64,000 bases of DNA from Asterias amurensis (Eukaryota), in assembly GCF_032118995.1 (NCBI RefSeq), contig NC_092652.1, positions 15,688,336 to 15,752,335 on the forward strand, given 5' to 3'. This document shows, one piece after another, positions 3,653 through 53,958 of the stretch. The notes beneath the pieces were generated by a model. It did no database searches and was not told the origin of the DNA. It worked only from the letters and a program-made list of their open reading frames with translations. Within the stretch, counting starts at the first letter, position 1. Each line of letters opens with the position of its first letter. The translations under genes and the position numbers were made by a program.

Positions 3653-4768
3653 CTGTAAATAATACAAACAAACAAATTAAAAACAAAGGCCAAAATAAAC
3701 AAACAAAATACCAGTTGATCATTCGGAAATTTTTCAAAAAGAGGAGGATGGGTCTTTTTTTTCTCTTTTTTTTTCTTCCCCAAGATGGGCGCTTATTGTT
3801 CAAATCAAACAGGCCACCAATTCTTCAGTTTGATCCAACCGCAAACTTGTTTTATATTTATTTGTTGTATGAGAACCCAGGTTAACAGGGTAAGATTATA
3901 ACACTAAAAAGATTCGCTAGTAGGCATTCACTAATTCTGTTTTATGAAACAAGACGGTTACAAGTATTCAAGAGCATCACGTTAGATTTGGGAAAAGGCT
4001 CTAGGTCCGTCCCTTTGGATAAATAAATAAAATACAGAAAAATAAAGCAAAATTTGTTTTTAAAACGATGCCCCCCACCCCAAAAAGAAAGACTTTGGGC
4101 GGGGAGGATCAGCTGGTATTGTTTTTTATATGGCCCAAGTCAATAGTAACGATACTAAGTGTCTTTACATATTGAGTAAGGGAGTGCCAATTTGTCACAA
4201 GAAAAAAAGGAACACTATCCACAGCAAACACCAAACGAAAAGCAAACAAGGATTACAGAATAATTCACACACATTGATAACGACACTTAGAGTTTTCTGT
4301 GAAAAAATGACGTTAGCAATTGCAAAACATTGTAGTAGACTTTGCTCAGTGTTGCAACATTAGATTACAAAGTGTGTCAAGTATAAATCATTATATATTT
4401 CGCTTCAGAAGCCGTTTCTCTTATATAAAAAGGTGTGCAAACATTTTCATTGAAGTTTATTATTAACAAAATTAGTAACAGCTTGGGTGGTGTTTGAAAA
4501 AAACATGAGCATTTGTTTTAAAAGTGTTAATCAAGAATGCCTAGGATAACCAAAAATTCCCTTCTTTTCTTTCTGAAAGCTCACTGATCATGAAGTTCAT
4601 ACTATATTTCCCCCTGAAATAGTATTGTTTTTGTTTCAACCCCCAAAAATCATTTTAAAATTTACCTAGTCAGTTTCCCATGTGGTTTACATGTTTAATG
4701 ATATATGAACTAAGGATACCATGTTATACCATGGTTGATCAACAGAAACATGAACATTGTCTGCAACT

Positions 4769-5012
4769 GGGCCCAATTTCATAGAGCTGCTTAAGCAAAA
4801 ATTTTTGCTTAAGCAAAAAATTCATTGCTTAGTAAAATCAGATTACCGGCCAAGACTCCACTCAATTGTAATGCTAAGTAAACAACAGCTTAATACTAGT
4901 CTTAAGAAATGTATTTGGCAGGAAATTTTGGCCAGTAACATGTGTAATATAAGCGAGCTATTTTCGTGCTTAAGCAATTTTTTTGCTTAAGCAGCTCTAT
5001 AAAATTGGCCCC
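4769..5012. mobile_element. MITE family C (TIR gggcccaatttcatagagctgcttaagc)
   Basis: copies at 4769-5012, 10393-10512 (partial), 43644-43860 and 47817-48080. Confidence 0.8.
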
Positions 5013-5166
5013 TGGTTATTTCAGCTCCACCAATCCTGTAGATGCCTTTAGTGAAAGCTCCAATTATTATCTTCTTGACAAATTCTCCTTCCTGTGCAGA
5101 TTCATACATGCTTTTGGTTTGATTGCTCCAGTCCCATTAAATTTCCTTCACTTTCCACAGTATTTC

Positions 5167-5557
5167 AAGGCAGCGGACACGATTGGTAATTAGTCAACAT
5201 AATTATTAACATAACACCAACTTGGTGACGAGTAATGGGGAGAGGTTGGTAGTATAAAACATTGTGAAAAACGGCTCCCTCTGAAGTGCCATAGTTTTTG
5301 AGAAAGAAGTAATTTCCACGAATTTGATTTCAAGACCTCAGATTTAGAATTTGAGGTCACAAAATCAAGCATCTGGAGGCACACAACTTCGTGTGACAAG
5401 GATGTTGTTCTTTCAGTATTATCTCGCAACTTCAACGACCACTTGAGCTCAAATTTTCACAGGTGTGCTATTTTATGCATATGTTGAGATACACCAAGTG
5501 AGAAGACTGGTCTATGACAATTACCATTAGTGTCCAGTGTCTTTCAAATATTTTTTC
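5167..5557 (-). mobile_element. MITE family A copy in the AGPS intron, ending 14 bp from exon 16
   Basis: both TIRs present (aaggcagcggacacgattggtaat / attaccattagtgtccagtgtcttt). Confidence 0.9.
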
Positions 5558-11010: not shown

Positions 11011-11466
<456 letters not shown>

Positions 11467-12046: not shown

Positions 12047-12990
12047 GTGGGACTACGTTTGAATTTTGTAATGGTTTACAAGTTGCTGTGTCGCAAAATG
12101 TTGCCAATCAAACCAGTAACACCGAGGTTAACCCTTCTCTTTGTGATAAGTACACTGGGTTCTTTTACGTCGCGTTACACAACACACGGGACCAGCAACT
12201 TTATGTCCTATCAGAAGGACGAAGCATCATGGTTAAGTATCTTGCTTAAGAATACATGCACGTGTAATGACTGGGTTTCGAACCCACACTCTGCTGATCA
12301 GAAACACCACAGCTTGAATTTGGTGCTCTTATACGCTCGGCCACAACACTTCAACTTTTAGAGCATAACTGTGTATTTAGCACCTTATAAGGGTTTACAA
12401 GGTGCTTCAGTGCATTTAGCAGAGCCAGGAACACCAGGGCGTACCCCTTCTCTTTGTGATAAGTACACTGGGTTCTTTTACGTCGCGTTACACAACACAT
12501 GGGACCAGCGGCTTTATGTCCTATCAGAAAGACGAAGCATCATGGTTAAGTATCTTGCTTAAGAACACATGCACGTGTAATGACTGGGTTTCGAACCCAC
12601 ACTCTGCTGATCAGAAACACCACAGCTTGAATTTGGTGCTCTTATACGCTCGGCCACAACACTTCAACATTTAGAGCATAACTGTGTATTTAGCACCTTA
12701 TAAGGGTTTACAAGGTGCTTCAGTGCATTTAGCAGAGCCAGGAACACCAGGGCGTACCCCTTCTCTTTGTGATAAGTACACTGGGTTCTTTTACGTCGCG
12801 TTACACAACACATGGGACCAGCGGCTTTATGTCCTATCAGAAGGACGAAGCATCATGGTTAAGTATCTTGCTTAAGAACACATGCACGTGTGATGACTGG
12901 GTTTCGAACCCACACTCTGCTGATCAGAAACACCACAGCTTGAATTTGGTGCTCTTATACGCTCGGCCACAACACTTCAACAATTACTTG
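12047..12990 (+). repeat. Tandem triplication (3 x ~313 bp) of a tRNA-SINE-like unit
   Basis: three near-identical units (12047-12361, 12371-12674, 12684-12990); ORFs 12047..13038 are artefacts of the repeat. Confidence 0.9.
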
Positions 12991-13069
12991 GATGTGTTAT
13001 GTTTGAGCTTCAGCACTTTAGAGCATAACTGTGCATGATATTTGCGCTGGGCCATGTGTATGCGCCTTT

Positions 13070-13720
13070 GTTGCACATCACATGACTGGTTCGCTTGACC
13101 AATACAAATACAGGATCTATAACAGTTTTTGGAAGCACATCATGGATTGGTTCTTGACAAAGAAATTCACAATCTATTACTGTCTTTGTAGCATACCACA
13201 TGATTGGTTCTTGACCAATAAAAATTCACAATCTATAACGGTCTTTGTAGCATATCACATGACTGGTTCTCGACCAATAAAATTCACAATCTATTACGGT
13301 CTTTGTAGCATATCACATGATTGGTTCTTGACCAATAAAATTCACAATCTATTACGGTCTTTGTAGCATATCACGTGATCGGTTCTTGACCAATAAAAGT
13401 TCACAATCTATTACGGTCGTTTGTGGCACATCAATCCTGTGATTGGTTCTTGACAAAGAAATTCACTATCTTTTACGGTCTTTTGTTGCATATCACGTGA
13501 TTAATTCTTGACCAATAAAAATACAGGATCTATTAGTCTTTTGTAGCATATCAAGTGACTGGTTCTTGACCAATAAAAGATCATTATCTATAATGGTTGT
13601 TTTTGGCACATCACATGATTGGTTCTTGACAAAGAAATTCACAATCTTTTATGGTCTTTTGAAGTATTTCAAGTGATTTCTTTTTTTTTACCATTAAAAA
13701 TACAGAATCTATACTGTTTG
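13070..13720. repeat. Minisatellite, ~62-bp unit x ~10 (catgattggttcttgaccaataaaattcacaatctattacggtctttgtagcatatcac)
   Basis: tandem array visible directly; ORF 13031..13366 is an artefact. Confidence 0.9.
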
Positions 13721-13756: not shown

Positions 13757-14002
<246 letters not shown>

Positions 14003-14464: not shown

Positions 14465-15253
14465 TCAGACACAGACTATTCATTTTGGTTTTTACCCATA
14501 CACCGAGTCCTGTGAAAAAATATCACAGGCATGTTACTCGGGTGGGATTCGAACCCACGACCCTTGCAATTCGAGAGCAGTGTCTTACCAACTAGGCTAC
14601 CGAGGTTGCCTGGCAGCCAGAGGCAGTTCGAATCCTATGTTTACCGCAACGATATAATAGATGTTAAATTTGCATCGGGGATAGGACATTGGGGGGGGGG
14701 GACATTACATGACAAGAATCTTTGGTGACCCATATCAAATTAATGTTAGCCAAATGTCTGGCACCCTTGAACAAAGATCTAGCACACAACTTCGTGTGAC
14801 AAGGGTGATTTTTCTTTCATTATTATCTCGCAACTTCAACGACAAATGGAGCTCAAATTTTCACAGTTTTTGTTTGTTTCATGCATATGTTGAGATACAC
14901 CAAGTGAGAAGACTGGTATTTGACAGTTACCAATAGTTTCCAGTGTCTTCAACCATCCATCCTGATTGCATTTATATCAAGTAAGAGTAGGCAGCTTACA
15001 GAAGGTCGAAAGCTAGAATTGCTTCAAACCGTGGAAGATCTTCTCTTATCAGAAGAGGTTGATCAGCTGCCAACCCTAAACTGGGAGGAGCCCAGTTTAG
15101 CCAAACACCTGGAGGTGAGTTTGTAGGCGGCAATGGCAACTATTCAACGTGTGATTCATACTTCGGTATGCCCACAGATTAAGGTATAGTCCGTAAAGGA
15201 TTCGGGCGGTTTTTCAAAATGGCCACAGGTTCACAACAACACGCATAACTTAC

Positions 15254-15333
15254 CATTTGTGACATGTCTAATGATACAATCATGCGTTTCTCTTCGGCCG
15301 GACACTGAACCGACTTGGTCACATTTGTTCCAC
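15254..15333 (-). CDS. AGPS: AGPS exon 8 (GGTNVTKSVQCPAEEKRMIVSLDMSQM)
   Basis: matches human [27 protein letters not shown]; donor ATG|gtaagt; verified against ORF 15179..15394. Confidence 0.9.
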
Positions 15334-15450
15334 CTAAAAGAACAAGTATAGATTCATAGTGGGAGTGATCATTTCTAATTCTACAATTTTTCACTTTTTG
15401 TAATTATTAATTCTGGTGGTGAATCCAAAGATTCTCAGAAAAGAGAACTT

Positions 15451-15832
15451 AAAGGCATTGTACACGATTGGTAATTGTCAAAGACCAGTGTTCTCACTTG
15501 GTGTATCCCATCATAAGCATAAAATAACAAGCCTGTGAAAATTTGGGCTCAATTGGTGTTCTAAGTTGCGAGAAAATGATGAAAGAAAAAACACCCAAAC
15601 ACCCTTGATGGACGAATTTGTGTGCTTTCAGATAGGAATAAAAGACTTCTAGCTAGAAGTCTTTTATTATTTTAGTGAGAAATTACCTCTCTCTCAAAAT
15701 CTATGTTAGTTCAGAGGGAGTCGTTTCCCACAATGTTTTATACTATCAACAGCTCCCCAATGCTCATTACCAAGTCAGTTTTTAAGTTAATATTTGTTTT
15801 CAACAATTACCAAACGTGTACCTTCCCTTTAA
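15451..15832 (+). mobile_element. MITE family A copy (full length)
   Basis: aaaggcattgtacacgattggtaattgtc ... caattaccaaacgtgtaccttccctttaa. Confidence 0.85.
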
Positions 15833-16390
15833 TCACTGTACAAGCCATGAACCCCATAAAGAGAATACATTAACAACCCTGAGAAATTACTCCAGCAGGA
15901 TTCGAACAGGGGACCTACAGGTAGAAAGCGAGGAAAGAAACCACTGGCAACCTGACCCCCTCATTGTATAATTCAATCAAGTTTTACTGCTTCTTCAAAG
16001 ACTATGAAACCCGACACTTGTGTTTTGGGTATACACCCAGGGGTATAAATGGGTACCTGCAATGATAGGGGTTGATAATGTGTTTAAATACGCCTTTGGA
16101 GTGTCACGGCAGCTCAGGCTGTATACTCCTAAAGGAGCTGAGAAATGTGAAAGGGATGTTTTTATTTGACCAATGACCAGGGCACCAATGTAAAGCACAT
16201 TGTTGTTTAACACTCTATAAGAACAAGTTATTATTATATTATTCAAGGAAAAGGTCCAAACTGACAGTTACTTATCTGACTTCATTTCAGGTTTTTATCA
16301 ATATGCAAATATTATTGCATAGAGGTATCAAAATTCCGGTTTCTTGATGATTTTGTTGACGTGAAAAACATGAAAATAGTTTGTACAAAC

Positions 16391-16462: not shown

Positions 16463-17517
16463 CTGTCAAACACAAAGAAAGGCAAAACCAACATGATTAA
16501 TATCACAATATTCTTGCATGTTGAAACTAGACAGCGAAGCTGCCATGGCGAGCTTTCGAATGCCGGATAGACCCAATGACTGACAGAAAAACCAATTATT
16601 TGATCAGCTGATGGTCAAAAGGGTGGAGACATTGACAAGTATGAAGTAATGACCATTCTAGGTTTACACTGTTTTAGCTCATTCAACTGGGATGGAACCA
16701 ATGATAAACTCGTTTAAACGCATACTGCTAAAGCAGCTCGCCAAAAATCAACTGTCATTTGCTCTTAACCTACATCGTACCAGTGCACTGTTTGAAACTG
16801 TTTGCCTGTTTGCCCGTTTCAAAAATGTCAATAGTTCGGAATCAACTGAAATGAAACCACTCAAACTAATCTAATTATTTATTTTGTCATAAGGGTGTAG
16901 TTTATTTTGTCAAAATTAATTCCTGGAAAAACTTATACCCATTTTTTTATTTTTTAAGAGGTGTTTTTTTTCCCCACCCGTTGGCTGTGCCCTGCATGGG
17001 TTCCCAGCAAAGACCCATAAAAATGAACAGTGAAAACAACACTGAAGTACCGGTGCCTCAGAAGACCGGTCCAAGCTGTGCTGTAAACTACGTCATAACA
17101 CGGACTGGATGAAAGTTGTGTAAGTTTGTTGCTATGCATTTTTTATTGTCTTTATTGGACCAAATCCATAGTGTGAGGTCACAATGCTGTTTTGATTCTT
17201 AGCCCATTAGTGGGTTTTCATGAAACTTTTGCCTATTATGAAACGAATGAAAATGTTGGTTTTTAGGGAAAATGTTTTATTGAGTTTTACTCAATTACAT
17301 GTAGTTATTACAATCTCAACTACCTTTCCGTATCAAAAGAACAATAATTTCATTTAAGTTGATTTTAAATAAAATCAGTTAACATAAAAGAGTTCCTTAA
17401 GTCAAAATTCAATTTGTAAAAAAGGTCTATTGTTTTGGTCAGTTGTCTTGTCTGTAGTGATAATTCCAAATGTATTTTTATATTTAAAAGAAACAGTTTC
17501 TTTTTAACGTATTTTTA

Positions 17518-18041
<524 letters not shown>

Positions 18042-20794: not shown

Positions 20795-21065
20795 TGAACA
20801 AAGAATTGACTAGAGTGGGATTCGAACCAATGACCTCCGGATTAACGTGCCGGTGCTCTACCAACTGAGCTATCTAGCCCTATATTGGCGGTGTCCCTAT
20901 TTTGCTGCCAGTCAGAAGCCATACAATTAACTGCCGTGATAGCTCAGTTGGTAGAGCACCGGCGCGTTCATCAAGAGGTCGTTGGTTAGAATCCCACTCT
21001 AGTCAATTCTTTGTTCAACCCCAAAAATCATTTCAAATTTTACCCAGTCAGTTTCCCTTGTAGTT
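20795..21065. mobile_element. Inverted pair of tRNA-like SINE heads (tagctcagttggtagagcaccgg...ggttcgaatccc) with tail ttctttgttcaaccccaaaaatca
   Basis: I rejected these as true tRNA genes: the anticodon and T stems are not properly complementary; related copies at 19245-19325 and 60640-60900 (another inverted pair). Confidence 0.65.
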
Positions 21066-21545: not shown

Positions 21546-22997
21546 AAGGAATTCCACTTTGTGACAGAAATTAAGACTTTCTTCACAGTTACAGAACTTG
21601 ACAGCCTCATAATTCTCCAGACATGTTCCTGTAGGACTATGACCGCAGTAAATCACCCCACTGAATGAAAGATGTTATCTAGTTTGCTCCGTAATCAATG
21701 AGATTTCCCAAGTGCCGCTTTGTTACAGTTACATGCAAAACAGCCATTGTCTGATCAATGCAATCTACATGTTTACAGATGACACAAAATTTATCAATCC
21801 TTTTGACAAACAGATAATACTTTGACCTCAGAGCACACAGAGTGACGATTATTGCACTTTGATCTGACAGTCCGAATTCCAAATTGTGAAACTGTCAGAT
21901 ATCTTTAAAAAATACATTTTGTGTACTATGTACCAGGCTGGTAAATGTATCTTCATTAGACCATGTATCTTTAAGTCGCCATCTTGTAGGGCAAACCGTA
22001 TGCGCGTCTAAACGTGTACATCAAAGAAACACGCAGCATGCAGCATTCCTGGTTTGATTTCAATGGCACAAGCACGCACACACAAACGCACACACACATG
22101 CACACGCTCACTGACGCCATTTTGTAGGGCAGATATTTGAACGGTGATGTCATATTCAATACAGTCTATTGAATAAATTAGCGTGGTTCAAAAATTAAAC
22201 ATTCCCACAATTGTTACAAACTGTGCACTAGGAGGAGGGGGTTGAAATCAGACGTAACCTTTTTCAGTTTTACAATCTAAAAACCCTGTAAAAAGACAAT
22301 TTACTAATAATAAATTCAACCCATAAATCATGCACCCTTGGTCTCAATATCTGTGCAGATTTAATGATCAGCCTTATGACAAAAGCCTTATGACAAATTG
22401 GAATGTCGGGGCGACATCATCGCCACAAACTAACTTTTACCACATCCATTTTTAAACAATAATTGCATTGTCATAAAGTCAAACTTATTTGAGTCAATTC
22501 TTAAACTCTCAATTAATTTTTGTGCAAGTCAAGGCAAGCCTCAAGTTAAATTCCCTCAAGTCAAGTCAAGACACATGTCATTTTTTTACCGACCAACGTC
22601 AATGCAAGTTACAAGTTATTTTTCCCCAAGTCAAGTCAAGTCGCAAGACAATGAAATTGGCGGCTCGAGTCCAAGTCAGAGACGCGAGTCAACAACACTT
22701 GTTCTGCTGGCTTGTCATTAACAAACTTAAGGGCAAACCCTGCAAGGGCAAAACAAATCTGAAATCAAAGTAAAGTGGAAAGCATAAAGCACGGTTCAAA
22801 CTTCCTGCGAATGCGCGATAAGAATGTTGAGGTCACAAATTCGCAACGAATAATTCGCAGAATTTGAGTTGTGCTCAACTCTCTTGCGAATGTAGCAGCG
22901 AAAAACCTAGTTGTGATGTCAAATTCACGTAAAATTTGCATCACATTCGCATTCGCAGGAAGTATGAACCGGGCTTTATACTTGCTTAAAGCCTCAC

Positions 22998-23085: not shown

Positions 23086-23953
23086 CTGAAACGAATAAAG
23101 AGTGCATACATGTACTCTTTTATGTCTGTCAAAACAACAATTTCAGAGCTCTTGCAGGAAAATAAGAGTGGACAGCATTACAAACAGTTGTTCCCTTATC
23201 TGATATACGTCTGTAGATGCAAACACAAATTTTTAAATAAATAATGAAACTAGTTCCAAACACATGGAAAAAAGGTCCATCAATTTTCATTGTTCAACTT
23301 ACATGTGGTCCCTGTAGGGAAATTTTTCAGAAAAAGGAATAATCATGATAATATTTGGAACAGTGGCAAGTCCGCACAACTGTTTGTGCAAAAGACTGAA
23401 CGGCTGACGTACAAACTAATGCATGGTGAAATACATCGCTTGATGAAAAATTTTAACTTAAATAATTTCAATCTGCAAATTAATGACACACTGGACTGTC
23501 TTCCATTATGTTGCTTTTAAGGCCCTTGTTCATTATGACATTATGCATGGCTAAATTAACCCTCCAGTTGAATGTTGAATCATTATTGTATTAGTAGAGT
23601 TGATTCCAGATAGATGAGAAGTCTCCCAACGATGACTAGAGCAAGCTAGTCGAAACATTGAGACCAATTCAAGAACTGACTCCGCAGCAGTGCAGTAAAT
23701 TACAATCCTATGGCTTAAGTACATAGTATTCCCAGCCAATTCTCTATACCTTCCGCCCGGGTAGCAGTTAAAACGCCGGACAGTTCTTTTCAGAACTGAG
23801 AAGTCTCCCGAACATCCGGTAAATCTACTACGCGATAGTAGAATAAAGAAAGACAGCTCTCTAAGAACAAACTCTACCAGGCGAGTAGATACACACATGG
23901 TGTTCCGACAAACCAAGTATAAATAGATGAGACAAGCTACATTTAATAAATAC

Positions 23954-24043
23954 CTGCTTCCAGTGAAAGAGAAGTTACTGGTGTCGTCAATCTCAAACTT
24001 TGAATCTCTATAACCCCATCCATTCCACTTTAATACCTCCTGC
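23954..24043 (-). CDS. AGPS: AGPS exon 3 (RQEVLKWNGWGYRDSKFEIDDTSNFSFTGS-)
   Basis: matches human RQEVMKWNGWGYNDSKF...; acceptor ttacag, donor AG|gtattt; coordinates cross-checked against ORF 23551..24114 frame. Confidence 0.9.
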
Positions 24044-24525
24044 CTGTAAACAAAAAGTATTTCAGCAAATCTTAAACCATAGATAACCATTAATAAGAAA
24101 AATAAAACACACATTAAACCCCTTACCCCTTGGTTTACACTTACTTGGATTCTTCCTCAGTCTGACGAAATCCACTGTTTGGTAACTCAACACCCAAACT
24201 TTTGCTCAACTTTTTACTGGACCATAATTATTCTTTAAAACAAGATCAGGGGCCGATTTCAAGATTTATCGTATCTGCACATTAATTGTTGTTGCTTAGT
24301 AAAGTGTGATGTCACACAATACAAATCACTATGGTAAAACTGACAATTTGTCTTACGATGGAGTGATTTGCTTTGTGAAATCGACCCAATAGCAGTTTAA
24401 AATGTCAACTCTTTTTATTTGAACAAGACAGGTTTTTACTCAATCTGCCTGGCTAGTGTTAATCCTCTGTGACGAAACAAACATACGTTATTTGTTAGCA
24501 AATTTATAAACTTGATAATTGTTAC

Positions 24526-30093: not shown

Positions 30094-30286
30094 CCCGGTT
30101 CATACTTCCTGCGAATGCGAAACGAATGTTGACGTCACAACTTCGCAACGAAAAATTTGCAGCAGTTCAACTCTGCTCAACTCAATTGCGAATATCGCTG
30201 CGAAAGGAGGGGTGTGACGTCGAATTCACGTCATTTTCGCTTCGAATTCGCATTCGCATGAAGTATGAACTGGGCTTTAATTTACC
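30094..30286. mobile_element. MITE family D (TIR gcccggttcatacttcctgcgaatgcgaa)
   Basis: copies at 22789-22975 and 30094-30286, plus a partial copy around 42780-42880. Confidence 0.75.
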
Positions 30287-34692: not shown

Positions 34693-35074
34693 AGCATATT
34701 TAAAGACATTTGACACTATTGGTAATTGTCAAAGACCAGTCTTCTCACTTGGTGTATTTCATAATATGCATTAAATAACAGACCTGTGAAAATAATCTCG
34801 TACCTGTGCGAGATAATAATGCAAGAAAAAACACACTTGTCACACGAAGTTGTGTGCTTTTGTATGGCTGATTTCGAGACCTCAAGTTCTAAACTTGAGG
34901 TCTAGAAATCAAATTCGTGGAAAAATACTTCTTTCTCGAAAACTACGTCACTTCAGAGGGAGCCGTTTCTCACAATGTTTTATACCGTCAACCTCTCCCC
35001 ATTACTCGTTACCAAGTAAGGTTTTATGCTAATAAACTTTTTGAGTAATTACCAATAGTGTCCACTGCCTTTAA
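34693..35074 (+). mobile_element. MITE family A copy (full length), about 140 bp 3' of exon 1 of the unknown gene
   Basis: TIRs gacactattggtaattgtc / accaatagtgtccactgcc. Confidence 0.9.
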
Positions 35075-38899: not shown

Positions 38900-39272
38900 C
38901 CTAAAAAAACAAAAACACGTGTAAAACTATTTCCAGATCATCTCATCTTTAGACAGGTGCGTTCACACACGTTTGTCAACCCAGTAAAAAGAGACCTTGT
39001 CTTTTTTCTCCCATTAGTTGCAGTGTTTATTTCATTTTTTACATACTTATTTGGTTGTCATCCGTCGTCATTTTCGAACAAATTCCTTTGGAAAATTTAT
39101 TTCTTTTCTAAAACTTCGCCAACCTTATAAAGCCTCGCCTTACAACTTTGTTACGGTTTGGTTGAAACATTTACGTTAGCACAGCACAACAGGTCCATGC
39201 ACATAAAGCCAGCAAACTGCAGTCAGCCAGGGTTGTCAAAACCCATACAAATTAAACCCATTTTGGGATGTT

Positions 39273-39366
39273 TCTTCTTCTTCTTCTTCTTCTTCTTCTT
39301 CTTCTTCTTCTTCTTCTTCTTCTTCTTCTTCTTCTTCTTCTTCTTCTTCTTCTTCTTCTTCTTCAC
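39273..39366. repeat. (CTT)n microsatellite, about 31 units
   Basis: a perfect ctt run. Confidence 0.97.
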
Positions 39367-42094: not shown

Positions 42095-44007
42095 ACTACC
42101 TCAATATTTTGGCATATAAATCCCGGTGCATACTTAATGCTACTCTCACACTAGGGAGAAAATGCTAGCGAATGTGCTTACGAACGTAAATATAATCGCG
42201 CAAACTTCGCAATATTCGCCACAAATTTACTACGTTCACAAGTCATTCTCCACCCCCTTACGAAGATCTGTCACTTTATGCAGCTCTCACACGGCGAATA
42301 TGCTAGCGAATATGCTAGCGAATATGCTAGCGAATATGCTATCGGAAGGACATTATTTGACAATCGCTCAAACTTCGCAGCATTCGCCGTGTCTTCGTTA
42401 TGAGCGCTGGTAACAAATTCGGAACGTTCACAAATAATTCCCCACCTCCTTACGAAGATCGCTCAATTTACAAACCGGTTTGTTAATTTCAGCGAATGTT
42501 GCGAAGACGGTCATTCGGCGTGATTTTCGTAAGCATTGGTAACCCTGGTAATAGCGTGCGTAAGCGTTTGCAACGTTCGTAAAGGCATTGGCAAGCGTTG
42601 GTAAGCATTCGTAATATATTCGTAAGATATTGGTAAGGAGAGGGCCGACCGAGGACGATCGAGAGGTGAGACCGAGATGAAAATATTCACTATCCAACCG
42701 CCATTTTGGACGAATTCTACGCGCAGTTCAGATAATGTTCGCAAGAACATTCGCCACTCTGTGAGAGCAGCAACTTTGCTCAACTCACTTGCGAATATCG
42801 CTGCGAAAGGAGGGTTATGACATCAAATTTACGTCAAATTCGCTTCGCATTCGCATTCGCAGGAAGCCGGGCTTTACTGCGAATGCGATACTAATTTTGA
42901 CATCAAAAATTCACAACGAATAAATCGAAAACATGGCGGTGACCCAGAACCGCCCGGTGAATAGTTGCCATTGCCGCCTACAAACTCACCTCCGGGTGTT
43001 TGGCTACACTGGGCTCCTCCCAGTTTAGGGTTGGCAGCTGATCAACATCTTCTGATGAGAGAAGATCTTCCACGGTTTGAAGCAATTCTAGCTTTTGGCC
43101 TTCTGCAAGATGCCTCTGCTCTTCCTTGATATAAATGCAATCAGGATGGATGGTTAAAGACACTGGACACTATTAGTAGTTGTCAAAGACCCAGTCTTCC
43201 CACTTGGTGTATCTGAACATATGCATACAAAAAAAACCTGTGAAATTTGAAGACTCAATTGCTCGTCGAAGTTGCGAGATAACAGTGGAAGAAAAAACAA
43301 CCCGTTTCACACGAAGTTGTGCGCTTTCAGATGCTTGAATTCAGGACCTCAAAATCTAATTCTGAGGTCTCAAAATCAAATTCGTGGAACATTTTGAAAA
43401 ACATGAATCACAAGGAACGCAAAAAAAAAAAAACATACCGCAAAGGGGGCGGGGTGACTTCTTTAGAGGTAAATATAGTGTGCTGAAAATTTGGAACATT
43501 GGGGGGGGGGGGGGTAAACTGCGATGGTCAGATTAAGGGGAACAAAATCCAATGCTGAGTGTTCAAATTAATCACTCTATATTTCGATTGCAGCAATCAA
43601 AATAAGAAACTCGATTTCTGGCGTCTTATTTTTTTTGTCTTCAGGGCCCAATTTCATAAAGTCTGTAAGCACAAAAATTGCTTAGCATGAAATTTCTTCC
43701 TTGATAAAAACAAAATTACCAACCAAGTTTTAATGGGTTCCATATTGCTCCGCTGTTGTTTGCTTATCCTGGAAATTTAGTTGGTAATCCTGTTTTTATA
43801 AAGGGACAAATTTCATGCTTAGCAAATATTTGTGCTTACAGGCTTTATGAAATTGGGCCCTGGTCAGACGGCATTTGAAGATTTTGGTGCTGGTATTATT
43901 ATCTGTACAGTGAGATTTAGACTGTTCCCCCCCCCCCCCCCCCCCCATCATTGTATATCTACCCTGGACTTTGTATTTCATGTTACAACACCATCATATC
44001 TCCTTAC

Positions 44008-44190
44008 TTCTTCTCTTTCTTCAACTGCTATGAAGCTTGTCATAGGTGTCACGATCGAATGGCGAATGCTCAGCTCTACAATTCGTGACTTAAGCTCATG
44101 CTTTTGAGCCTCGTGTTCCGGGCGGTCAGCGTGAAGGACGCCCTCTTCCCAGTCTCTGATCACAGCATGTGCTGCCAACTTGTGGATTAT
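44008..44190 (-). CDS. PARP4: PARP4 exon (IIHKLAAHAVIRDWEEGVLHADRPEHEAQKHELKSRIVELSIRHSIVTPMTSFIAVEEREE)
   Basis: aligns to human MIHKLAARALIRDYEDGILHENETSHEMKKQTLKSLIIKLSKENSLITQFTSFVAVEKRDE; donor GAA|gtaagg. Confidence 0.9.
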
Positions 44191-44489
44191 CTGTTCCAGG
44201 CAGGATTTTGTTTTGATTATTTGTTTTCAAAGTTTAATCTAAAATAAATAAACCAGTTTGATTGACCCTTCCTTTTAAAATTGCATTCACGCATGCATAT
44301 TAATACAAACACTACAGTGGGCAATTGAGCACTGTAGGCAGAGGTACAAAATTGTATGGATCACGCCACTGTTCCTTCAATTTTGCCTGCAATTATTACA
44401 TAATGTGCAATTGACATGTTTCACCGGAAGGATACATTCTTTCAATGTTTTGGGGCCAAATGATATAGCCACAGATCTAGTCCACAACC

Positions 44490-44755
44490 GGGATTCTGCT
44501 GGGATCCCTTTCGAATACCGTTAGGATCCCAACGGGATTCCCGGTAGGATCCCGTCGGGATTCCCGATAGGATCCCGTCGGGATTCCCAGTGGGATCCCG
44601 TCGAGATTCTTGGTGGGATCCCGTCGGGCTCGGTGAGGTCCCGTCGGGATTCCGTCGGGGTTCCCGGTGGGTTCCCGTCGGGATTCCCGGTGGGATCCCG
44701 TCGGGATACCCGGTGGGATCCCGTCGGGATTCCTTGTGGGATCCCGTCGGGATCT
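44490..44755. repeat. Tandem ~24-bp repeat (gggattcccggtgggatcccgtcg) x ~11
   Basis: direct tandem copies; each unit contains the palindromic GGGATYCC core. Confidence 0.9.
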
Positions 44756-45362
44756 ATTTGTTTGTATCACTTCTTTGGTACAATTCTTCTAACAGGGAAC
44801 GCTGTTTTTACTCTTATACATATGCCTTTTATTACTTGAGGCTATACACATCATTTTCATCCGACAATAACAACTGTTATTTCTGTTCATTTCCTTTTCT
44901 AACTAGTGGACTTAATAGTAACCACTTGTGAAAATTACGTCCTCCGATTTTTTCTGACGAAACTATAAGGAAAATCTTAAAATTGAGCTTCCCTGTAATG
45001 TTTTCGAAAAAACAGTATTGGCTTGGCTATTGATCGGAGCTTCACTCAGGCAGATGACACCTGAGCCGGAGCATAGCCGTGGTTTCGAAAAAGCCAATGG
45101 TAACCAAAGTCACAGATTCCCGGTGTGATAAAGGTCACATTTAATGATGCAAGACTCAAGCGAGATCAGAATGAGGGAGTCTTAGGCCCAGAGGGTTGAA
45201 GTAACGTCTTGACTATCATTAATAAAACCTAAGGTATCTTATACAAAGGGAATCCTAGATTGTGGTCAAATATTAAATTAGTCTTTGCTCCCCCACCCCC
45301 CTATAGATAGGGACATGATTTTTCAGAGCCTATGACGGGAATCAACTGAATAAGTTTCTTAC

Positions 45363-45443
45363 ATTTCCTTCGGTATGCGGTTGGTCTATTGCAGAGAGTA
45401 CTGTCTCAACCTTTTTGCCGTTTACTTCAGCAAAAAGCGTTGC
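45363..45443 (-). CDS. PARP4: PARP4 exon (ATLFAEVNGKKVETVLSAIDQPHTEGN)
   Basis: aligns to human ATLCALIQEKEFCTMVSTTELQKTTGT; acceptor ttttcctctag, donor AAT|gtaaga. Confidence 0.8.
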
Positions 45444-46090
45444 CTAGAGGAAAACAATACCAAAAACCCCTCATTAAATTACTACAACTGTGAAATCAGA
45501 AGCATTCTACCTTAGACTAAAGCAACACTTCCACGGCAATACAGCTCTCCAAAAGTTGTTGTTTTTAATAAGATCTTTTCTTGGTTAATTTAGGGTACTT
45601 TTCTCATTTCACATTTCAAAAGCATACAAAGTATGGTAAATGTAACATGTCCTATCTCATTCTCTTTTTAAACTTTCGTCCTGTAGGGGTTATTTTATTT
45701 TTACCAAAAAAACTTGCTTTTCTAAAAATGTAATTTTTCGAGTTGCATGGGCTCTTTTGCCTTGGAAGGACCAAAAGACGGACAGCATTTCTTATGGAAT
45801 GCCATTAATTGATTGTATATTATAGTACAAAGTTCAGAATCAGACATTTTGAAATCATGGTGTACACATCATAATGTTCTGTTTTTGGTGTGAGTGAATT
45901 TGTTTAATTTTTAGGGCCACTAAAAAGGCACGGGTGTAAAAAATTTACATCATGGGTGACACATAATACCAAAATCAAGGGACTGAAGTACCACAGAACA
46001 GAACTTCGAGGGCCCCAACATTAGACCCACACAAGACCTGCACAGTCTGTTTTGACTGTTAAATTTAAGCGTCACATTTTCTTCAGGCTT

Positions 46091-46478
46091 AAAGGAACAC
46101 GTTGCCTTGGATCGGACGAGTTGGTCAAAACAAAAGCGTTTGTAACCGTTTTTTATAAAATGCATATGGTTGGAAAGATGTTTTAAAAGTAGAATACAAT
46201 GATCCACACAAGTTTGCCTCGAAATTGCGTGGTTTTCCTTCTACTGTGCGAACTAACATGGTCGGCCATTTATGGGAGTCAAAATTTTGACCCCCATAAA
46301 TGGCCGACGAGTTAGTCGACGAGGTAAAAGGAAAACCACGCAATTTCGAGGCATGTTTGTGTGGATCATTGTATTCTACTTTTACAACATCTTTCTACCC
46401 ATATGCATTTTATAAAAAACGGTTACAAACGCTTTCCAAAGACCAACTCGACCGATCCAAGGCAACGTGTTCCTTTAA
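46091..46478. mobile_element. Foldback family B copy (in a PARP4 intron)
   Basis: the full palindrome with a palindromic centre atttatgggagtcaaaattttgacccccataaat. Confidence 0.85.
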
Positions 46479-46514
46479 TAAGGGTATGAATTCATAGTTG
46501 ATGCCATCCCGTAC

Positions 46515-46673
46515 CTTGGCAAAGTTTCGCAACAGCCCGTAGACAATGAGACGGTTCTTCCTGAACAAGGAGGTGATTTGAGCGGGAGCTTGGAGTAGTG
46601 GAAGGGTTTCTTGACTGTCTTGATCCCACTGGACACTCACTGATGTTACGGCAGGCTGACTGGCTCGGGAAAC
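46515..46673 (-). CDS. PARP4: PARP4 exon (VSRASQPAVTSVSVQWDQDSQETLPLLQAPAQITSLFRKNRLIVYGLLRNFAK); 5' boundary uncertain (acceptor at 46673 or 46679)
   Basis: aligns to human SPSCHSVSVKWQQLNPDAPEALQAPAQVPSLFRNDRLLVYGFIPHC; one or more exons between this exon and the 48239 exon are unresolved (phase mismatch). Confidence 0.75.
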
Positions 46674-47816
46674 CTGGAGCTTAATCTATAATCGTTGTTC
46701 CAAATTGTTAAAAACAATAATTTTGTATAATATCAGCTCTCCAATGCTTGTTACCAAGTAATTTTTTTTACTATTTGTTTTGAGTAATTACCAAACGTGT
46801 ACCTTCCCTTTATTGGGCATAAATTTCAACCACATATAGGCCCACTCACTTTTTTCTCCCAGGTTGATTTCGCTGCACTGTCAAAGAACTCAAAAGCTCC
46901 TCCACCTTGTCTTGCAACAGCCGCAAGAAGATGACGATTTGCTGTCGCACTACATCAGTCAAATCAAACAAAGTCAAGACAATCTCAAGATATTGGTTAC
47001 AACAATTGGAGCAGATGTTTGGATGAACTGTGCCATTGATAACACAAGCATGGAATTTGGCACACAATCAGATTGTCCAGTGTTGTAGTCAAGACCGGTA
47101 CACCCGAGACCAAGCCAAGACAGCACCAAGACCAAGACCAGCATATCCAAGACCGAGACAAGACAATGACCAAGACAAAGACCAAGCAAGTCGACACCAA
47201 GACAAAGACCAGAGTGTCAAGGGGGAGACCGGTCTCGAGAACTACAACACTGGATATGTCATCAGAAAGTTATTTGGTTATGTAGTGCCAAACTTTACGT
47301 TTTCAAAGAACAAGTCTGTGATGGCCCTCTAGCCAAATATTTTGTTCATTAAGTAAAGACCTTTTTAAACTACTCTATGGGGCAACCCTATGATTAACGG
47401 CTAGCCCTTTCACACTTGGATCGCTTTACCGTGATTTACCCCGGCAAATTGCCATGATCCCTGGGAATAGCCACCACTGTCCTGGAGTAGGGGTAAGCGG
47501 TAAAATCCCAGGGTATTCATGGAATAGCATGTGGGACAGTGTGAAAGTGCGTCGGTAACAAACTCCTGGGGCCTCCGCCGAGCTGTATTCCATTTTAAAA
47601 AATAATTTAAATTATACAATTAAATATACAAAAAATCTCTAAAATGTAAAATCTCTAATATCAAAATCTCACAAAGTTTGCAATATAATTTTTCTTAGGT
47701 AATATTGTATATTGCATCTTGGTCTGTTTTAGCTCTACAATAATTATGTTGAGTCCTGTTGACAAATCCTAACTCGTTGGTTAGATTCGAACCCGTGGGC
47801 TCTGCCATTCTAGACC

Positions 47817-48080
47817 AGGGCCCAATTTCATAGCGCTGCTTAGCGGCCTATTTTGTGCTTACTGTGTGATTTCTATTTCATGAAAAGGCATGCTAACCTT
47901 CCGGTGCTTACCACACGAAAATAAATGACGTCACAATGCAAATCCACGGTAAACACGCAATATGGCCGCCCAATTTTCCTGCTAACCTGTGAAATACGCT
48001 AAGGCTTAAGCAATTTTGTTCTGCTACAGTAAGCACGCAAATTTGCTTATACCGTTAAGCAGCGCTATGAAATTGGGCCC
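47817..48080. mobile_element. MITE family C copy (in a PARP4 intron)
   Basis: gggcccaatttcatagcgctgcttagc ... gcttataccgttaagcagcgctatgaaattgggccc. Confidence 0.8.
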
Positions 48081-48238
48081 TGTTATCATAGGACTAAGCA
48101 TCGAGCTAGGATGGGAGGAATGCTTGAAGATTGCCATGCCTTACAACCCTGCCTGTACCAACAGAAACTAAAACATTCAATGCACCTCGTACATAGATTG
48201 TCAATTTTAGTTTAACACTTGCTGTAGACGTAATTTAC

Positions 48239-48497
48239 CTCACACCACACGTGAAGATTCTTGTGAAGGCTCTGTTGCGTCCAACAGCTCTCAAAGTCGC
48301 CTCTTCGTTATTCAGATGACCGTCAGTTACCAGGAACAGATTTCTATGCGCGTGCTCCTGTTTCAGCAAGTTCTGTGACTGCAAAGGGCGCCAGAAGTCG
48401 GTTCCTCCTCCAACACTGTAGCCTTTAATGAACTCCTTGGCCGATTTGACAGTCTTTCTGCTCTTTTGTTGACTTGCGGGAAAAAGCTCATCGAATT
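48239..48497 (-). CDS. PARP4: PARP4 exon, VWA domain (EFDELFPASQQKSRKTVKSAKEFIKGYSVGGGTDFWRPLQSQ...NLFLVTDGHLNNEEATLRAVGRNRAFTRIFTCGV-)
   Basis: aligns to human YKELFSYPK...NTDFWKTLRYL...NILLVSDGHLQDESLTL...RLFACGIG; donor AG|gtaaat. Confidence 0.9.
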
Positions 48498-48820
48498 CTG
48501 TCCCCGAAATGAGAGGGGGGAAGTCAGTTCAAACCTTTGCAAGACTTATTTATCATAAGGTACATGTTGTGCATACCCACACAAAGGGGGGGGGTCATAT
48601 ATACTTTTTTAACAGAAGGCCTACTTATTATAAAGATGGTATTGGTAGTAAGTATTCTGCAAAACTTTTTCGTCTTAAGTTCCCCTGTCGACTTTAAATC
48701 AATAAGAAGTATGCTGAAAAACGTAAATTTCCAAAGATAGCCTTGAAGCATTTGTTAGAGATTTAAAATCCCATGGTTTCCGTGTGTGAATGCTGCACCC
48801 AGAGATGCATAAAGGCCTAC

Positions 48821-49007
48821 CTGTACCGAAGACTACCACATTGAAGGTACAACTTGAAGGAAGATTCTTCACAATAAGAAGCAGTATTTTCTTGGCCTCT
48901 TCAAGACTGCTTCCCTTCATGGAGTTTGATGAATCCATTACAAGGACCATCTCTGGATTAGCTAGGTTACTCACATCCAGTTCAGGATAAAATACCAGCA
49001 TGGCGGC
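48821..49007 (-). CDS. PARP4: PARP4 exon, VWA domain (AAMLVFYPELDVSNLANPEMVLVMDSSNSMKGSSLEEAKKILLLIVKNLPSSCTFNVVVFGT-)
   Basis: VWA MIDAS-like DxSxS motif; aligns to human ACMLVFQPDLDVDLPDLASESEVIICLDCSSSMEGVTFLQAKQIAL...VNIIQFGTG. Confidence 0.92.
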
Positions 49008-49463
49008 CTGTTGTTGATATAGAACTACTTGTTACATAGAAATATACTTACAAGATACTTACAAGATATTTCATTAAAATAAAAAGTTGTTGTTTGAAGT
49101 ACTTGGTAACAGTGTACCCCATAAATCTAAGCAAAAACAAATGAAGCACTTAAATGAAGCATATTAATTAATATATCGCACCTTAAACAGAAACCAACCA
49201 ATATGCACAAGCCCCTGCAATACAAAACCCTTTAAGAGTTAAGAGTAACTTAAATATAAATATGAATAGTAAACTTGCGGGTACACATGTGTAAAATCTC
49301 TTTAAGGGGAGTGTTGGCTCTGAAAAGAGCCGGTTTGGTCTTGAACAGTATACTCTGCTCGTCTTCAGGAGAATTCTTTCACTACTAATACAATATTACA
49401 ATCCGAGGTCGTTGGTCCAAGCAAAACGACCCAAACAAAACAAGCAAGCAACATCTGTGTTAC

Positions 49464-49601
49464 CTGGTCATCAGATCCTGGTTCCGGCTCTTCTATCCAC
49501 ACTCTTGGCTTGTGAATCTCCTCTATACCAATCAATAGCTGAAACCCTTCATCGAGTTTGGAGTCTTTGCCGAGCTTGATGGACGCCTTGTTATCCGATT
49601 G
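49464..49601 (-). CDS. PARP4: PARP4 exon (QSDNKASIKLGKDSKLDEGFQLLIGIEEIHKPRVWIEEPEPGSDDQ)
   Basis: aligns to human ...SGFSLHIGLSAAYLPRMWVEKHPEKESE; acceptor tttctttctcag, donor CAG|gtaaca; verified against ORF 49365..49634. Confidence 0.85.
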
Positions 49602-49969
49602 CTGAGAAAGAAATCCAAACATCAAAAATATCACCTTTAAGAAATGTGTTTGTATGGCCTACCCTCCGAAGACATTTTTCAATAGGTCCTCACTAGTTGG
49701 TTCTTTGTTTTCATGGGTCCTCTGAAGTCATTTGTGTACAAAACCATCAAGGATTGCTTCAATACGGGAACAACAACAGAAAGCCCCCCAAAAAGGTGTC
49801 CTCTATAACGTAGTGTGTCAAATTTTCAACACTCGGAGAATTATCTCTGCCAGAATCCCGCAAAACGGCGGGGTTCCTGTGTGAATCGTACAAGAATCCG
49901 ATCGGGAATTCTGTATCATTTTCGTTACCACCTTTTCGAACTTTGTGTGTGTAAGAATCCATGGCTTAC

Positions 49970-50051
49970 TTTAACAAGAATAGAATGTGTAGATGACTCG
50001 ATACTTGTGATCTTAGACGCCATGGTAACTGCAACATGAATCGACTGCTCC
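49970..50051 (-). CDS. PARP4: PARP4 exon (KEQSIHVAVTMASKITSIESSTHSILVK)
   Basis: aligns to human KQSFSLTMSIEMPYVIEFIFSDTHELKQK; donor AAA|gtaagc. Confidence 0.8.
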
Positions 50052-50188
50052 CTGTAATAACAAACACATCAAATACAAATCACTGTCAAGAACGGCCATA
50101 TTTGTTGAGGAGAAATGGACGAAAAGTTGTAACTCGATCACAATGATAAATTTAATATCGTTAGCATAACGGACAAGTTAAAACTTAC

Positions 50189-50397
50189 TTGTAAATTGTT
50201 TCTAGTTCAACATCGACAACATCTCGCTCTGAGGGTGTCCCTTTAGCAAGAACCTCTTGGCGTTTCCATGGTGCAACGGTACCGAGAAGATTAAAAGCAA
50301 GTCTGTCGCCCTCCACGGAAAGTTCTGTCACATACGTCACTTTAATGAGAACATCAGCTTGTGGGGGAAGATTGCCAACGCTGACCGAGAACACATG
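50189..50397 (-). CDS. PARP4: PARP4 exon, VIT domain (HVFSVSVGNLPPQADVLIKVTYVTELSVEGDRLAFNLLGTVAPWKRQ...ETIY-)
   Basis: near-identical to human DVFTVSVGNLPPKAKVLIKITYITELS...PATVAPWQQ; donor AA|gtaagt. Confidence 0.92.
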
Positions 50398-51102
50398 CTT
50401 AAAAATAACAGATGAAAACGGAGTTAACTTTGCAACCATTTTCTTTTAAACGTCAAACAAAAAGACACTGTCAAAACAAGGTTTTCACTCGTCACCATTG
50501 CCATCGTTCATGCTTACACCACACAAGAAAGACAAGTCTCTGTTTAAAAATAAAGATTATGGCAACAGATAACTACAAAGTGTGATGCAAGTTGGTAACT
50601 TTTAAAAGCAACACTGAAAATAAATTATGGTTCTCCCTAATTCAGTGACACTTTCACTATTGACTTGAAATGCATCCGTTTTCAGTTTTGTCATTGTTGG
50701 GTGGTCGAAGGCACCATTGGGACGATTGATGCATGCCAGTGTAATGAGAGTCACCGGGGTGGCACGTGCGGCTAAGTGCTCGCCTCTCACTATTGACCCT
50801 GGATCGATTCCCAGCTATAGGGCCATGTGAGTAGAGTTGTGCAATGGTTCTTTTTTTCATGCAATAAGGAAGTTTCTCCAGGCCCTCCGGTTTTCCTCTA
50901 TCTTGAAAAGTTAAGCACTTCGATCTCTGGCTGTGCTCAATGTAAGGCTGCCTGAGACACATTCCATGCATGCAGCCCGAACACGTTGTAGCCGCGTCCT
51001 CAACAATTCAGCTTTCGCCAGCTGCAAGTAGGGATGATTAGCCTCCCAAATTAATATCACTATTGTTACTATTAATAATACTACTATGAATAAGTAACTT
51101 AC

Positions 51103-51321
51103 AGGAAATTCTTCGTCCATAAGATAAGCTCCGTGCCCAGCCTCCACTGCTTGGCGATACTCCCTGTGAGCTTTTTCCTTCTCCTTCACGACACCAACTA
51201 CATGTTTATCATTGATGAAAGCCTCAAATCCACAAACTGCCGCTGATTGGTCTAGTGGAAATACGTACTTGGCTTCCATGGTTTCGTCACTATTGTTACG
51301 ATACGACTGCAGGACCACTAC
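51103..51321 (-). CDS. PARP4: PARP4 exon, VIT domain (VVVLQSYRNNSDETMEAKYVFPLDQSAAVCGFEAFINDKHVVGVVKEKEKAHREYRQAVEAGHGAYLMDEEFP)
   Basis: near-identical to human VIVFQTYTNKSHVPIEAKYIFPLDDKAAVCGFEAFINGKHIVGEIKEKEEAQQEY...GHGAYLM; donor CCT|gtaagt. Confidence 0.93.
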
Positions 51322-51771
51322 CTGGTTGATTCAACATTGGAATGTCTTAGCTTGAAGACACTGGAAACTATTCGGAATTGTCAAAGACCAGTCTTCTCAC
51401 TAATGTCTCAACATAAACATAACAAACCTGTAAACACAATTTCCACAGATTTACATTAAACTTTACACCATTTGAAGATAATGATGGTAGAAAGCGAACC
51501 TTAAAATATAAGTTTCTGGATGAGGTGCTGTAGTTTTCGAGAAATGAGTAAAACAATGTCAAGAAAGCACGATTTTTCTCATGGTCATTGAGACGAAAAT
51601 TATTTTCATGACATTGTTTTTAGGGCAGTGTTTTTTGTGTTTGTTGTCCACAAAAAGTACCCAGACCCTTTAATATATAGACACCTAATAGTGTACAAAA
51701 AGTACCCAGACACCTAAACAGTTGATAACTATAATTAGTTGATACCTGAATGCTTATGAATACTACCTTAC

Positions 51772-51908
51772 CTCAGCCACTAGATCCAGTAGTTTTGCTC
51801 TGACGTGTACAGCTTGTAGGGTGATTGAGTCTGATGTTTCATTTTGACTGACGAGGCCAGCATCAACGCCTGCTATGGGATCCTTTGCACATTCTACATC
51901 ACTGAGAT
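51772..51908 (-). CDS. PARP4: PARP4 exon (DLSDVECAKDPIAGVDAGLVSQNETSDSITLQAVHVRAKLLDLVAE), start of VIT domain
   Basis: aligns to human ...VHIKGRIIDTVAQ; donor GAG|gtaagg. Confidence 0.8.
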
Positions 51909-52783
51909 CTGTTAGTTAAGGACGTTTATGTGTTAGTGTAACTGGTGAGAATTCAAACTTTGGTTCACCATACAGTGTAGTGCGGGCTGCTGTGAAAACA
52001 GCGAGCCCCCCCCCCCCCACCCTAGTCCGTGGTTGGACTCCTCCTTTGGAAATAGTCCAGTCGAGACACTAAATTGTGTCACTGGTGAAAGTTGATTTTG
52101 GTTGATAGCCCAATTCAGTAAATGTGTTTACCTGGGGTGCGTTCCACTCGCGCAAACGACTCGCAACCGAAGATATAGAATATAATTATTTAATTCTATA
52201 TCATATGGGCGGCGCCCTGAAATGAAGATGGCGCGCACCATACGTAGTTTTTTAAAACTTTGTTTTGCTGCAATAGTCCTCTTTTTGACATCATTGCATC
52301 AACTAATTAATTTTGTCATTCCAAATCTGCCTTATCCTCAACCGAGAATACAATGTAATTATGTTTGTGACAAAGAAATAATACCGTATGCTTGTCCGTC
52401 ATTTTAAAAACCACTCGCCAACACCTCCGAAGTATGTTCACCTAAAGTTGCCAACGTTCGCCAACAGTGGCAGCGAACAACTCGTTCCAATTGTTGGCGA
52501 ACGTGCGCAACTGTTGGCAACGTTTGCGCGAGTGGAACGCACCCCTTTATCCTAGAAGTCGCCATTTATGTGTGTTGTAAAGGCCGTTTCTCGTTAAAGA
52601 AAAAAATAAAAAGGTCATTATATACGTGTAATTTGACACCTAGCTTGAATCATAACCAAAAGTTATTGAAAACTGAGGTCTGTGTGCTCTGCGTGCTGGG
52701 AAAAAATTTGTGCAGCGAACTCGATCAACTCTCATGGATACGAGGTTGATAAGTAGACTTTTGTCTGATGTCTTACACATTAC

Positions 52784-52970
52784 CAATTGTTGTTGGAGCA
52801 CTACTTTGAACCTCCTCGACTTGTTTAAAGATGATCATCTCCTCCGGTCCTTCTGCAATCTGAGGAGTTTCACAGAGAGGTATCTCCACCTCAGTTTCTC
52901 CTGGCAGGGTGAACTCAACAAGGTAGCGCATACATTGCTGGATCGTCTCGTATACAACAAACTCATCATC
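52784..52970 (-). CDS. PARP4: PARP4 exon, end of catalytic domain (DDEFVVYETIQQCMRYLVEFTLPGETEVEIPL...SSAPTTI-)
   Basis: near-identical to human DDEFVVYKTNQVKMKYIIKFSMPGDQ; acceptor taactacag, donor G|gtaatg. Confidence 0.88.
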
Positions 52971-53768: not shown

Positions 53769-53958
53769 CTCAAACTCGGACTCTATTGGGTGTGCAGAAC
53801 GACTGCTGACCCCATGGGTACTATGGTGCCCCTCTGGTGCCTGATTGAGAGTCATATCAAACTTGTACAGCTCCTTGACGTTTCCCAAGGCAACCTTGTT
53901 GATAACCATTAGTCTGGTACAGGCTTGCTGACTAGGTGGTGAGTATTGGTGAACCGTA
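53769..53958 (-). CDS. PARP4: PARP4 exon, PARP catalytic (STVHQYSPPSQQACTRLMVINKVALGN...GHHSTHGVSSRSAHPIESEFE)
   Basis: LGEVALG-like motif; aligns to human ...FDSVHGVSQTASVTTDFE; verified against ORF 53709..53909. Confidence 0.88.

Follow-up and report, generated by a model that had tools for sequence, protein, structure and literature searches.

Interrupted gap repair at transposon ends is known from the P-element and Mu literature. Ectopic sequence can be copied into a break in templated insertions and in SDSA or MMBIR-type copying (PMC8421209, PMC11724301); the templated inverted duplications in PMC11724301 are very short (~5-34 bp). Pack-type, or transduplicating, TIR transposons are a further described class (PMC8903248), with Turmoil-1 as an animal case (PMC2572040). 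Such elements are defined by two TIRs that face inward, by a TSD and by belonging to a cluster of similar elements. Small dispersed duplications leave gene-fragment pseudogenes. PARP4 is the vault poly(ADP-ribose) polymerase (PDB 11jf, 9bw6, 9bw7).

Here we describe two related segments, copy A and copy B, in the window, a 64-kb stretch of Asterias amurensis DNA. Copy B is like PARP4 in sequence (EDVDxLPxxxWE), domain colinearity, intron positions and phase, and selection, and shows no essential difference from other PARP4 genes; its upstream intron here is 883 nt long and holds two MITEs, one of which ends 29 nt from the acceptor. Copy A resembles templated insertions: it is a short (~390-nt), inverted copy whose source lies close by on the same chromosome, it has no transposon-type ends, and its breakpoints lie at or in hairpin-forming repeats. 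It differs in being longer (390 nt) than the duplications of PMC11724301 and in being ancient, known only as a fixed, decayed product, and an empty site is needed to read its junction microhomology. With Pack-type elements it shares a host exon fragment joined to the end of a TIR element, whereas the inward-facing TIR pair and the TSD are missing and a cluster of similar copies was found neither in the window nor in the leaky protein databases. Copy A is thus not a mobile Pack element, though it may look like such a capture at its earliest stage. It is like a gene-fragment pseudogene in being a single-exon fragment with intron flanks, a frameshift, stops and a neutral pattern; unlike the typical one, it keeps AG and GTGAGT and perfect splice-proximal blocks, and lies antisense in an intron of another gene. 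We hold with considerable confidence, as a joint claim, the identity of both copies and the non-transpositional origin of copy A; this confidence does not extend to the choice between the two repair routes given below.

A BLAST search with 14700-15300 against the window finds an inverted homologous pair, 14781-15157 on the plus strand against 43325-42947 on the minus strand (88% identity over 382 nt, E 1e-133), in agreement with the first-pass annotation of this DNA. That annotation gave the shared unit as ~190 bp, which is too short. The full unit is ~390 nt, 14781-15169 (+) against 43325-42930 (-), at ~88% identity, and includes 172 nt of a MITE of family A (MITE-A) and ~14 nt of a second MITE. 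The exon copies lie ~28 kb apart in opposite orientations. Between A and B, identity is 85% in the MITE part, 100% in a 29-nt spacer, 92.5% in the exon part and 100% over the 33 nt after GTGAGT; homology then fades to ~15169. In both copies the module starts directly after the same family-A terminus, ...GTGTCTT(T/C)AA (14952/14953 in A, 43154/43153 in B), and both keep the GAG/GTGAGT donor and the conserved GGCGGCAATGGCAACTATTCA stretch, as had been reported.

BLAST found no module copies beyond these two in the 64-kb window. Three protein-database searches with the module returned only the ortholog of copy B (protein P0001, on contig L001) and missed P0004, which bears the module (82% identical); eukaryote gene models of this lineage are almost absent from the protein collections, and such negatives say little on copy number. 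The window count hints weakly that only two copies of the module may exist in the genome.

Copy B and its surroundings in PARP4 comprise the following features.

44008-44190, minus strand: upstream PARP4 exon, 183 nt, 61 codons (IIHKLAAHAVIRDWEEG...SFIAVEEREE).
43125-44007, minus strand: GT..AG phase-0 PARP4 intron of 883 nt, between the exons 44190-44008 and 43124-42990.
43125-43153, minus strand: native 3' end of that intron, 29 nt (CCATCCATCCTGATTGCATTTATATCAAG), with polypyrimidine tract and AG, between the MITE terminus and the exon.
43126-43125, minus strand: AG acceptor of copy B.
42990-43124, minus strand: copy B, a PARP4 exon of 135 nt, 45 codons (EEQRHLAEGQKLELLQTVEDLLSSEDVDQLPTLNWEEPSVAKHPE), phase 0/0, identified by cross-species comparison, selection and colinearity.
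42989-42984, minus strand: GTGAGT donor of copy B.
42957-42989, minus strand: donor-proximal intron block GTGAGTTTGTAGGCGGCAATGGCAACTATTCA, identical in A, B and L001 and kept in part in contig L002.

The gene neighbourhood consists of AGPS (1-24100) and PARP4 (42990-59100), both on the minus strand, with PARP4 upstream. Exons for the PARP_reg, PARP catalytic and VIT domains run on the minus strand from 57.7 kb down to 50.2 kb, upstream of copy B; the latter follows closely on exon 44190-44008 and reads in the sense direction of the gene. The intron/exon boundaries of PARP4 in the window, GAA/GT...AG/GAA and GAG/GTGAGT, are in frame. A profile of the joined exons matches human PARP4 (PDB 11jf_P; also 9bw6 and 9bw7) at residues 1123-1216 with E 2.2e-19; the alignment spans the module motif EDVDFLPYMSW (EDVD-LP---W), and the module itself corresponds to about residues 1185-1216. 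In a tblastx comparison with the more distant PARP4 locus L005, a colinear chain of exons joins L005 342-5528 to window 59107-43014, with the module as its last link. In the same comparison PARP4 exons downstream of 42990 were not found, being too diverged. The module peptide matched no Pfam family.

Selection on copy B can be read from its relatives. Between B and L002 there are 8 synonymous and 7 nonsynonymous differences (omega 0.20, Nei-Gojobori), and L001 against L002 gives omega 0.24. Against its ortholog L001 the exon of B is 98.5% identical, compared with ~86% in the flanks. Copy B is a real exon rather than intronic cargo because its position is conserved, it matches human PARP4, it is colinear with the other exons and it is under purifying selection. 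These comparisons identify it as a genuine, ancient and constitutive-looking PARP4 coding exon; cross-species conservation is the ground on which its splice sites are taken to be in use. The second copy had been placed in a PARP4 intron; it is instead a PARP4 exon and the source of copy A.

The intron sequences next to the splice sites are strongly conserved. The 29-nt intron end at 43125-43153, which lies outside the MITE family alignment, and the block at 42957-42989 (14953-14981 and 15115-15147 in A) are 100% identical in B, L001 and A. For B and L001, this suggests that the intron sequence next to the splice sites is under constraint; for copy A, the identity is probably chance (P ~0.05 at A's own rate). 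The zero A-specific changes in these 62 nt looked like a signal at the bulk rate (P ~0.002-0.004), which weakens to P ~0.05 at the A-branch rate of ~4.6-6%; the blocks were moreover picked post hoc.

Orthologous and more distant loci place copy B in a conserved gene structure. L001 is a 677-bp marine metagenome contig (SOLA, ERZ23498373) bearing P0001, the matching protein in the databases. It aligns with B over its full length (~650 nt), including flanks that are absent from A, at 86.3% identity. L003, from the same study, is the ortholog of window 44727-43680, also at 86.3%. Since this divergence at the single-copy PARP4 locus equals that of L001 from B, L001 is the ortholog of B in a sister species. 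The 650-nt alignment had raised the idea of a larger composite repeat family, which is ruled out with L001 an ortholog and not a paralog. A protein query with PARP4 exons returned two short proteins only, on contigs of 1.1 and 1.6 kb; an exhaustive protein search also gave P0002 (1173 aa), a spurious match to a low-complexity repeat protein. L002 is a 1.6-kb contig of a related species (GCA_014845345.1, JACSEG010018677.1) found by protein search with the upstream exon 44190-44008. In it the upstream exon and the module are contiguous, in frame, as one exon (...IAVEEREE/EEQMQIAEGQKLELLHTVEDLLSSEDVDQLPTLSWEEPTVAKQPE/gttaga), with homologous intron sequence on both outer sides. Scanning of metagenome contigs gave the more distant PARP4 loci L005, L008, L009 and L011. 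A phase-0 intron at the same site as in the window follows ...E(K/E)REK/GT in L005, L009 and L011, with GC in L008. In L005, L008 and L011, where sequence reaches that far, a homologous exon of 40-45 codons follows (e.g. DEDMSKRKGPGINELVDKENVDILTYMGWEEDEKAGKKVE/gt); it contains ...DLVxKExVDxLxYxGWE... and ends at /GT in the same relative position as copy B.

The 883-nt intron at 43125-44007 of the window is present in the SOLA sister species and absent in L002 (318-345) and in L006/L007 (2180-2524). Because the same phase-0 site has an intron in the four distant PARP4 loci, its absence is best read as exact loss, with the L002 lineage keeping both neighbouring introns. The converse, a MITE-driven gain of the intron at 44007-43125 (introner-like), is ruled out, since the site is shared with those four loci and the intron ends are not MITE ends. 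In the window most of the intron is filled by a MITE-A fragment and a palindromic MITE at 43642-43862; this self-complementary MITE-like element of ~220 bp occurs also at 4757-5014. Tandem arrays in PARP4 introns, among 44518-44754, 56620-56890, 39272-39364 and 55994-56188, comprise a 23-bp unit (GGATCCCGTCGGGATTCCCGGTG), (ACAG)68, (TTC)31 and a 37-bp unit x5.3; the GGATCCCGTCGGGATTCCCGGTG array lies ~330 nt upstream of exon 44190-44008.

The MITEs around the two copies are as follows.

43154-43389, minus strand: MITE-A fragment in the PARP4 intron (about positions 150-385 of 385, left TIR missing), from BLAST to full-length copies.
42766-42950, minus strand: MITE-C, palindromic, in the intron downstream of the copy B exon, with inverted repeats; other copies, at 22802-22978 and 30106-30263, start GGTTCATACTTCCTGCGAATGCGAA.
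15428-15839, minus strand: divergent full-length MITE-A-like copy, inverted relative to the MITE part of copy A.

Family A is a real, non-coding 385-bp MITE with TIR TTTAAAGGCAGTGGACAC...GTGTCCACTGTCTTTAAA and ~17 copies in the 64-kb window, for example at 5163-5547, 17514-17887, 34696-35074, 58157-58550 and 59272-59647. Its flanks fit a TA or TTAA duplication and its targets look like TT/TA/AA, with a strong TTTAAA-like preference; the copy at 5163-5547 has TTTCAA on both sides. An internal hairpin has arms of 17-21 nt, at 43335-43355 and 43359-43379 on the B side. One family-A MITE has inserted 29 nt upstream of the acceptor of copy B, and the palindromic family-C MITE lies ~40 nt downstream of the donor. 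The truncation of the MITE-A at copy B is also present in the ortholog L001.

The first 172 nt of the shared unit are this family-A repeat, and all copies of it stop at the same point. This bears on the proposal that the module is an exon of the autonomous parent of the MITE, from a transposase or accessory gene, with the MITE as its deletion derivative. Adjacency of module and MITE is the one observation that speaks for it. The module, however, lies outside the MITE TIR, whereas a parent and its MITE share termini; ~15 other MITE-A copies with the same terminus have unrelated flanks; and the peptide is homologous to human PARP4, with no transposase homology. We reject this proposal.

Copy A consists of four parts.

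14781-14952, plus strand: MITE-A part (about positions 215-385 of the MITE); weak similarity may reach left to ~14766.
14953-14981, plus strand: 29-nt PARP4 intron end with AG, 29/29 identical to B and L001.
14982-15114, plus strand: pseudo-exon, 133 nt, with a 2-nt deletion, first codon TAA and TAG downstream.
15115-15169, plus strand: donor GTGAGT and ~55 nt of PARP4 intron; the last ~14 nt (GATTCATACTTCGG) are the start of MITE-C, where homology ends.

Copy A lies within an intron of AGPS, as the first-pass annotation had it, between the exons at 13757-14002 and ~23940-24045, and is antisense to the gene. The AGPS exons, on the minus strand, include 13757-14002 (FAD_binding_4), 11011-11466 and a LKWNGWGY exon at ~23940-24045 (near 24000). 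Other repeats in AGPS introns are a 313-bp unit present 2.7 times at 98% identity (12132-12986) and a 58/180-bp tandem array of ~10 units at 80% (13066-13661). Sequences resembling tRNAs occur at 14534-14606 (-), 20807-20879 (-) and 60638-60710 (-), with a fragment at 15887-15907 (Rfam 37-49 bits); one is separated by 175 nt from the left end of copy A. Rather than tRNA genes, these are probably the head regions of tRNA-derived SINEs.

An open frame had been reported in both copies. The quoted frame is present in both, but in A it is open over the last 37 of the 45 codons only, with the 2-nt deletion and TAA/TAG at the start. The pseudo-exon carries 8 substitutions relative to the state common to B and L001, and A differs from B by 1 synonymous and 7 nonsynonymous changes. 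These patterns mark copy A as a dead gene fragment that is decaying neutrally, and its order of parts as a partial copy of the PARP4 locus: MITE end, 29-nt intron end, exon and ~55 nt of the next intron. A three-way alignment of A, B and L001 over 14781-15169 has 33 changes private to A, 10 to B and 9 to L001. Copy A is thus older than the species split of B and L001, because it is the outgroup to both orthologs.

The left end of copy A is inside MITE-A, at the base of the internal hairpin, and the right end is ~14 nt inside MITE-C. The flanks are unique in the window, with similarity to the PARP4 locus at chance level only. A later transposon insertion in B might have hidden a longer A/B homology; the best match of the right flank, 15167-15200 against 42116-42085, is no better than shuffles, and the last ~14 nt of A already match the start of MITE-C. 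No TSD brackets 14766-15169, where short repeats occur at chance level only; a 16-nt direct repeat, 14746-14761 / 15097-15112 (13/16), is among these.

Capture of a host exon was the second proposal of the first-pass annotation. Copy A is indeed a host-exon copy on a MITE end; transduction by the MITE is the part that finds no support, there being no other TIR, no TSD and just two copies in the window, with none found elsewhere in the leaky databases. In a Pack-type version, a family-A element, or a composite of two, would have moved the PARP4 exon between its ends, maybe in multiple copies. Transduplication is a known process (PMC8903248, PMC2572040), the module is joined to a MITE-A terminus at both loci, and the second MITE-A-like copy (15428-15839) lies 496 nt right of copy A, inverted. 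Its nearer end (15449), however, faces outward, away from the module, so the two MITE ends flanking the module of copy A both point outward and there is no inward-facing TIR pair; by the criteria for Pack-type elements (PMC8903248) such a layout speaks against one single element. Neither A nor B has the left TIR, a second MITE-A is lacking at B, and neither TSD nor further copies were found, the latter in the window or in databases that are leaky. Moreover, B sits at a conserved PARP4 exon position in other species, which makes it the source and not an insertion. Such a transposition we regard as very improbable.

Retroposition would account for some features of copy A, which is a contiguous sense-strand intron-exon-intron piece of the PARP4 primary transcript. 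A reverse transcriptase, such as a LINE enzyme that jumps between templates, would have copied a fragment of unspliced pre-mRNA and placed it in the AGPS intron. The 5' limit of A lies at the 3' base of a stable hairpin, a stall point for a polymerase moving 3' to 5' on its template. Against this, the right end has no poly(A), simple-repeat tail or LINE 3' sequence (neither end of 14766-15169 has a poly(A) or LINE tail), there is no TSD, and the MITE part of A shares none of the derived sites of the MITE in B. We consider this origin improbable.

Derived sites were called in the MITE against a consensus of ten other copies. There are 10-11 in B and L001 only, 8 private to A and 0 common to A, B and L001. 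Those of B and L001 belong to the PARP4 locus alone and do not mark a subfamily. The MITE part of A is nearer to other MITE copies (90%, 88%) than to that of B (85%). Private divergence of A is ~5% in both the MITE and the exon parts, and in the MITE the B lineage reaches 10-13%.

The absence of common derived sites, with the MITE of A not specially close to that of B, would also be expected if an older duplication of the exon region had been free of any MITE and each copy had later received a MITE-A of its own, in one orientation and at the same TA/TTAA site, and the strong TTTAAA-like target preference of the MITE is in keeping with this. The history requires, however, two hits at the identical nucleotide in one orientation, and the exon part of A is only ~4.6% privately diverged, so that the duplication is not older than the MITEs. 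We find it exceedingly improbable.

We infer that copy A originated when DNA was copied directly in the course of break repair or replication, and not through a transposase or as part of a multi-copy element. The route that we favour, tentatively, is aberrant gap repair (SDSA) primed by a MITE. The AGPS intron would already have held its own resident MITE-A, and a break would have occurred at or near the right end of that element. Repair would have proceeded by invasion of the homologous MITE-A in the PARP4 intron; synthesis would have continued past the MITE end and across the exon for ~215 nt before end-joining of the new strand. In a simpler variant, which we think somewhat less likely, all ~390 nt would have entered as one contiguous templated insertion. 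MITE-primed repair fits better because no derived MITE sites are shared, because the MITE of A is nearer to other copies than to B's, and because its divergence is lower. The rate argument against contiguous insertion is marginal (p ~0.02-0.05). Against the MITE-primed route, the MITE of A is without its left half, and its final ~40 nt, in which the switch must fall, hold 0 informative sites.

On a further reading, copy A would be the preserved first step in the acquisition of a host exon by a TIR element in an animal, through MITE-primed repair. Repair from a MITE lying 29 nt off a PARP4 exon would then have carried a symmetric (phase 0/0) exon with its splice signals into the neighbouring gene. 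We rate this reading as rather unlikely.

The result is mainly a correction: the apparent mobile exon is an ordinary conserved PARP4 exon and its twin a dead fragment, and neither copy requires that any element, gene or mechanism be new. Where a MITE lies beside a splice site, a real exon can be mistaken for transposon cargo. Copy A offers a clean case, open to dating, of a short inverted copy within one chromosome with breakpoints in two hairpin-forming MITEs, and comparison across species exposes a precise intron loss in a related species. If the MITE-primed route is true and general, dense hairpin-forming MITEs beside splice sites would open a way for exon shuffling and Pack-like capture in the MITE-rich genomes of marine invertebrates.
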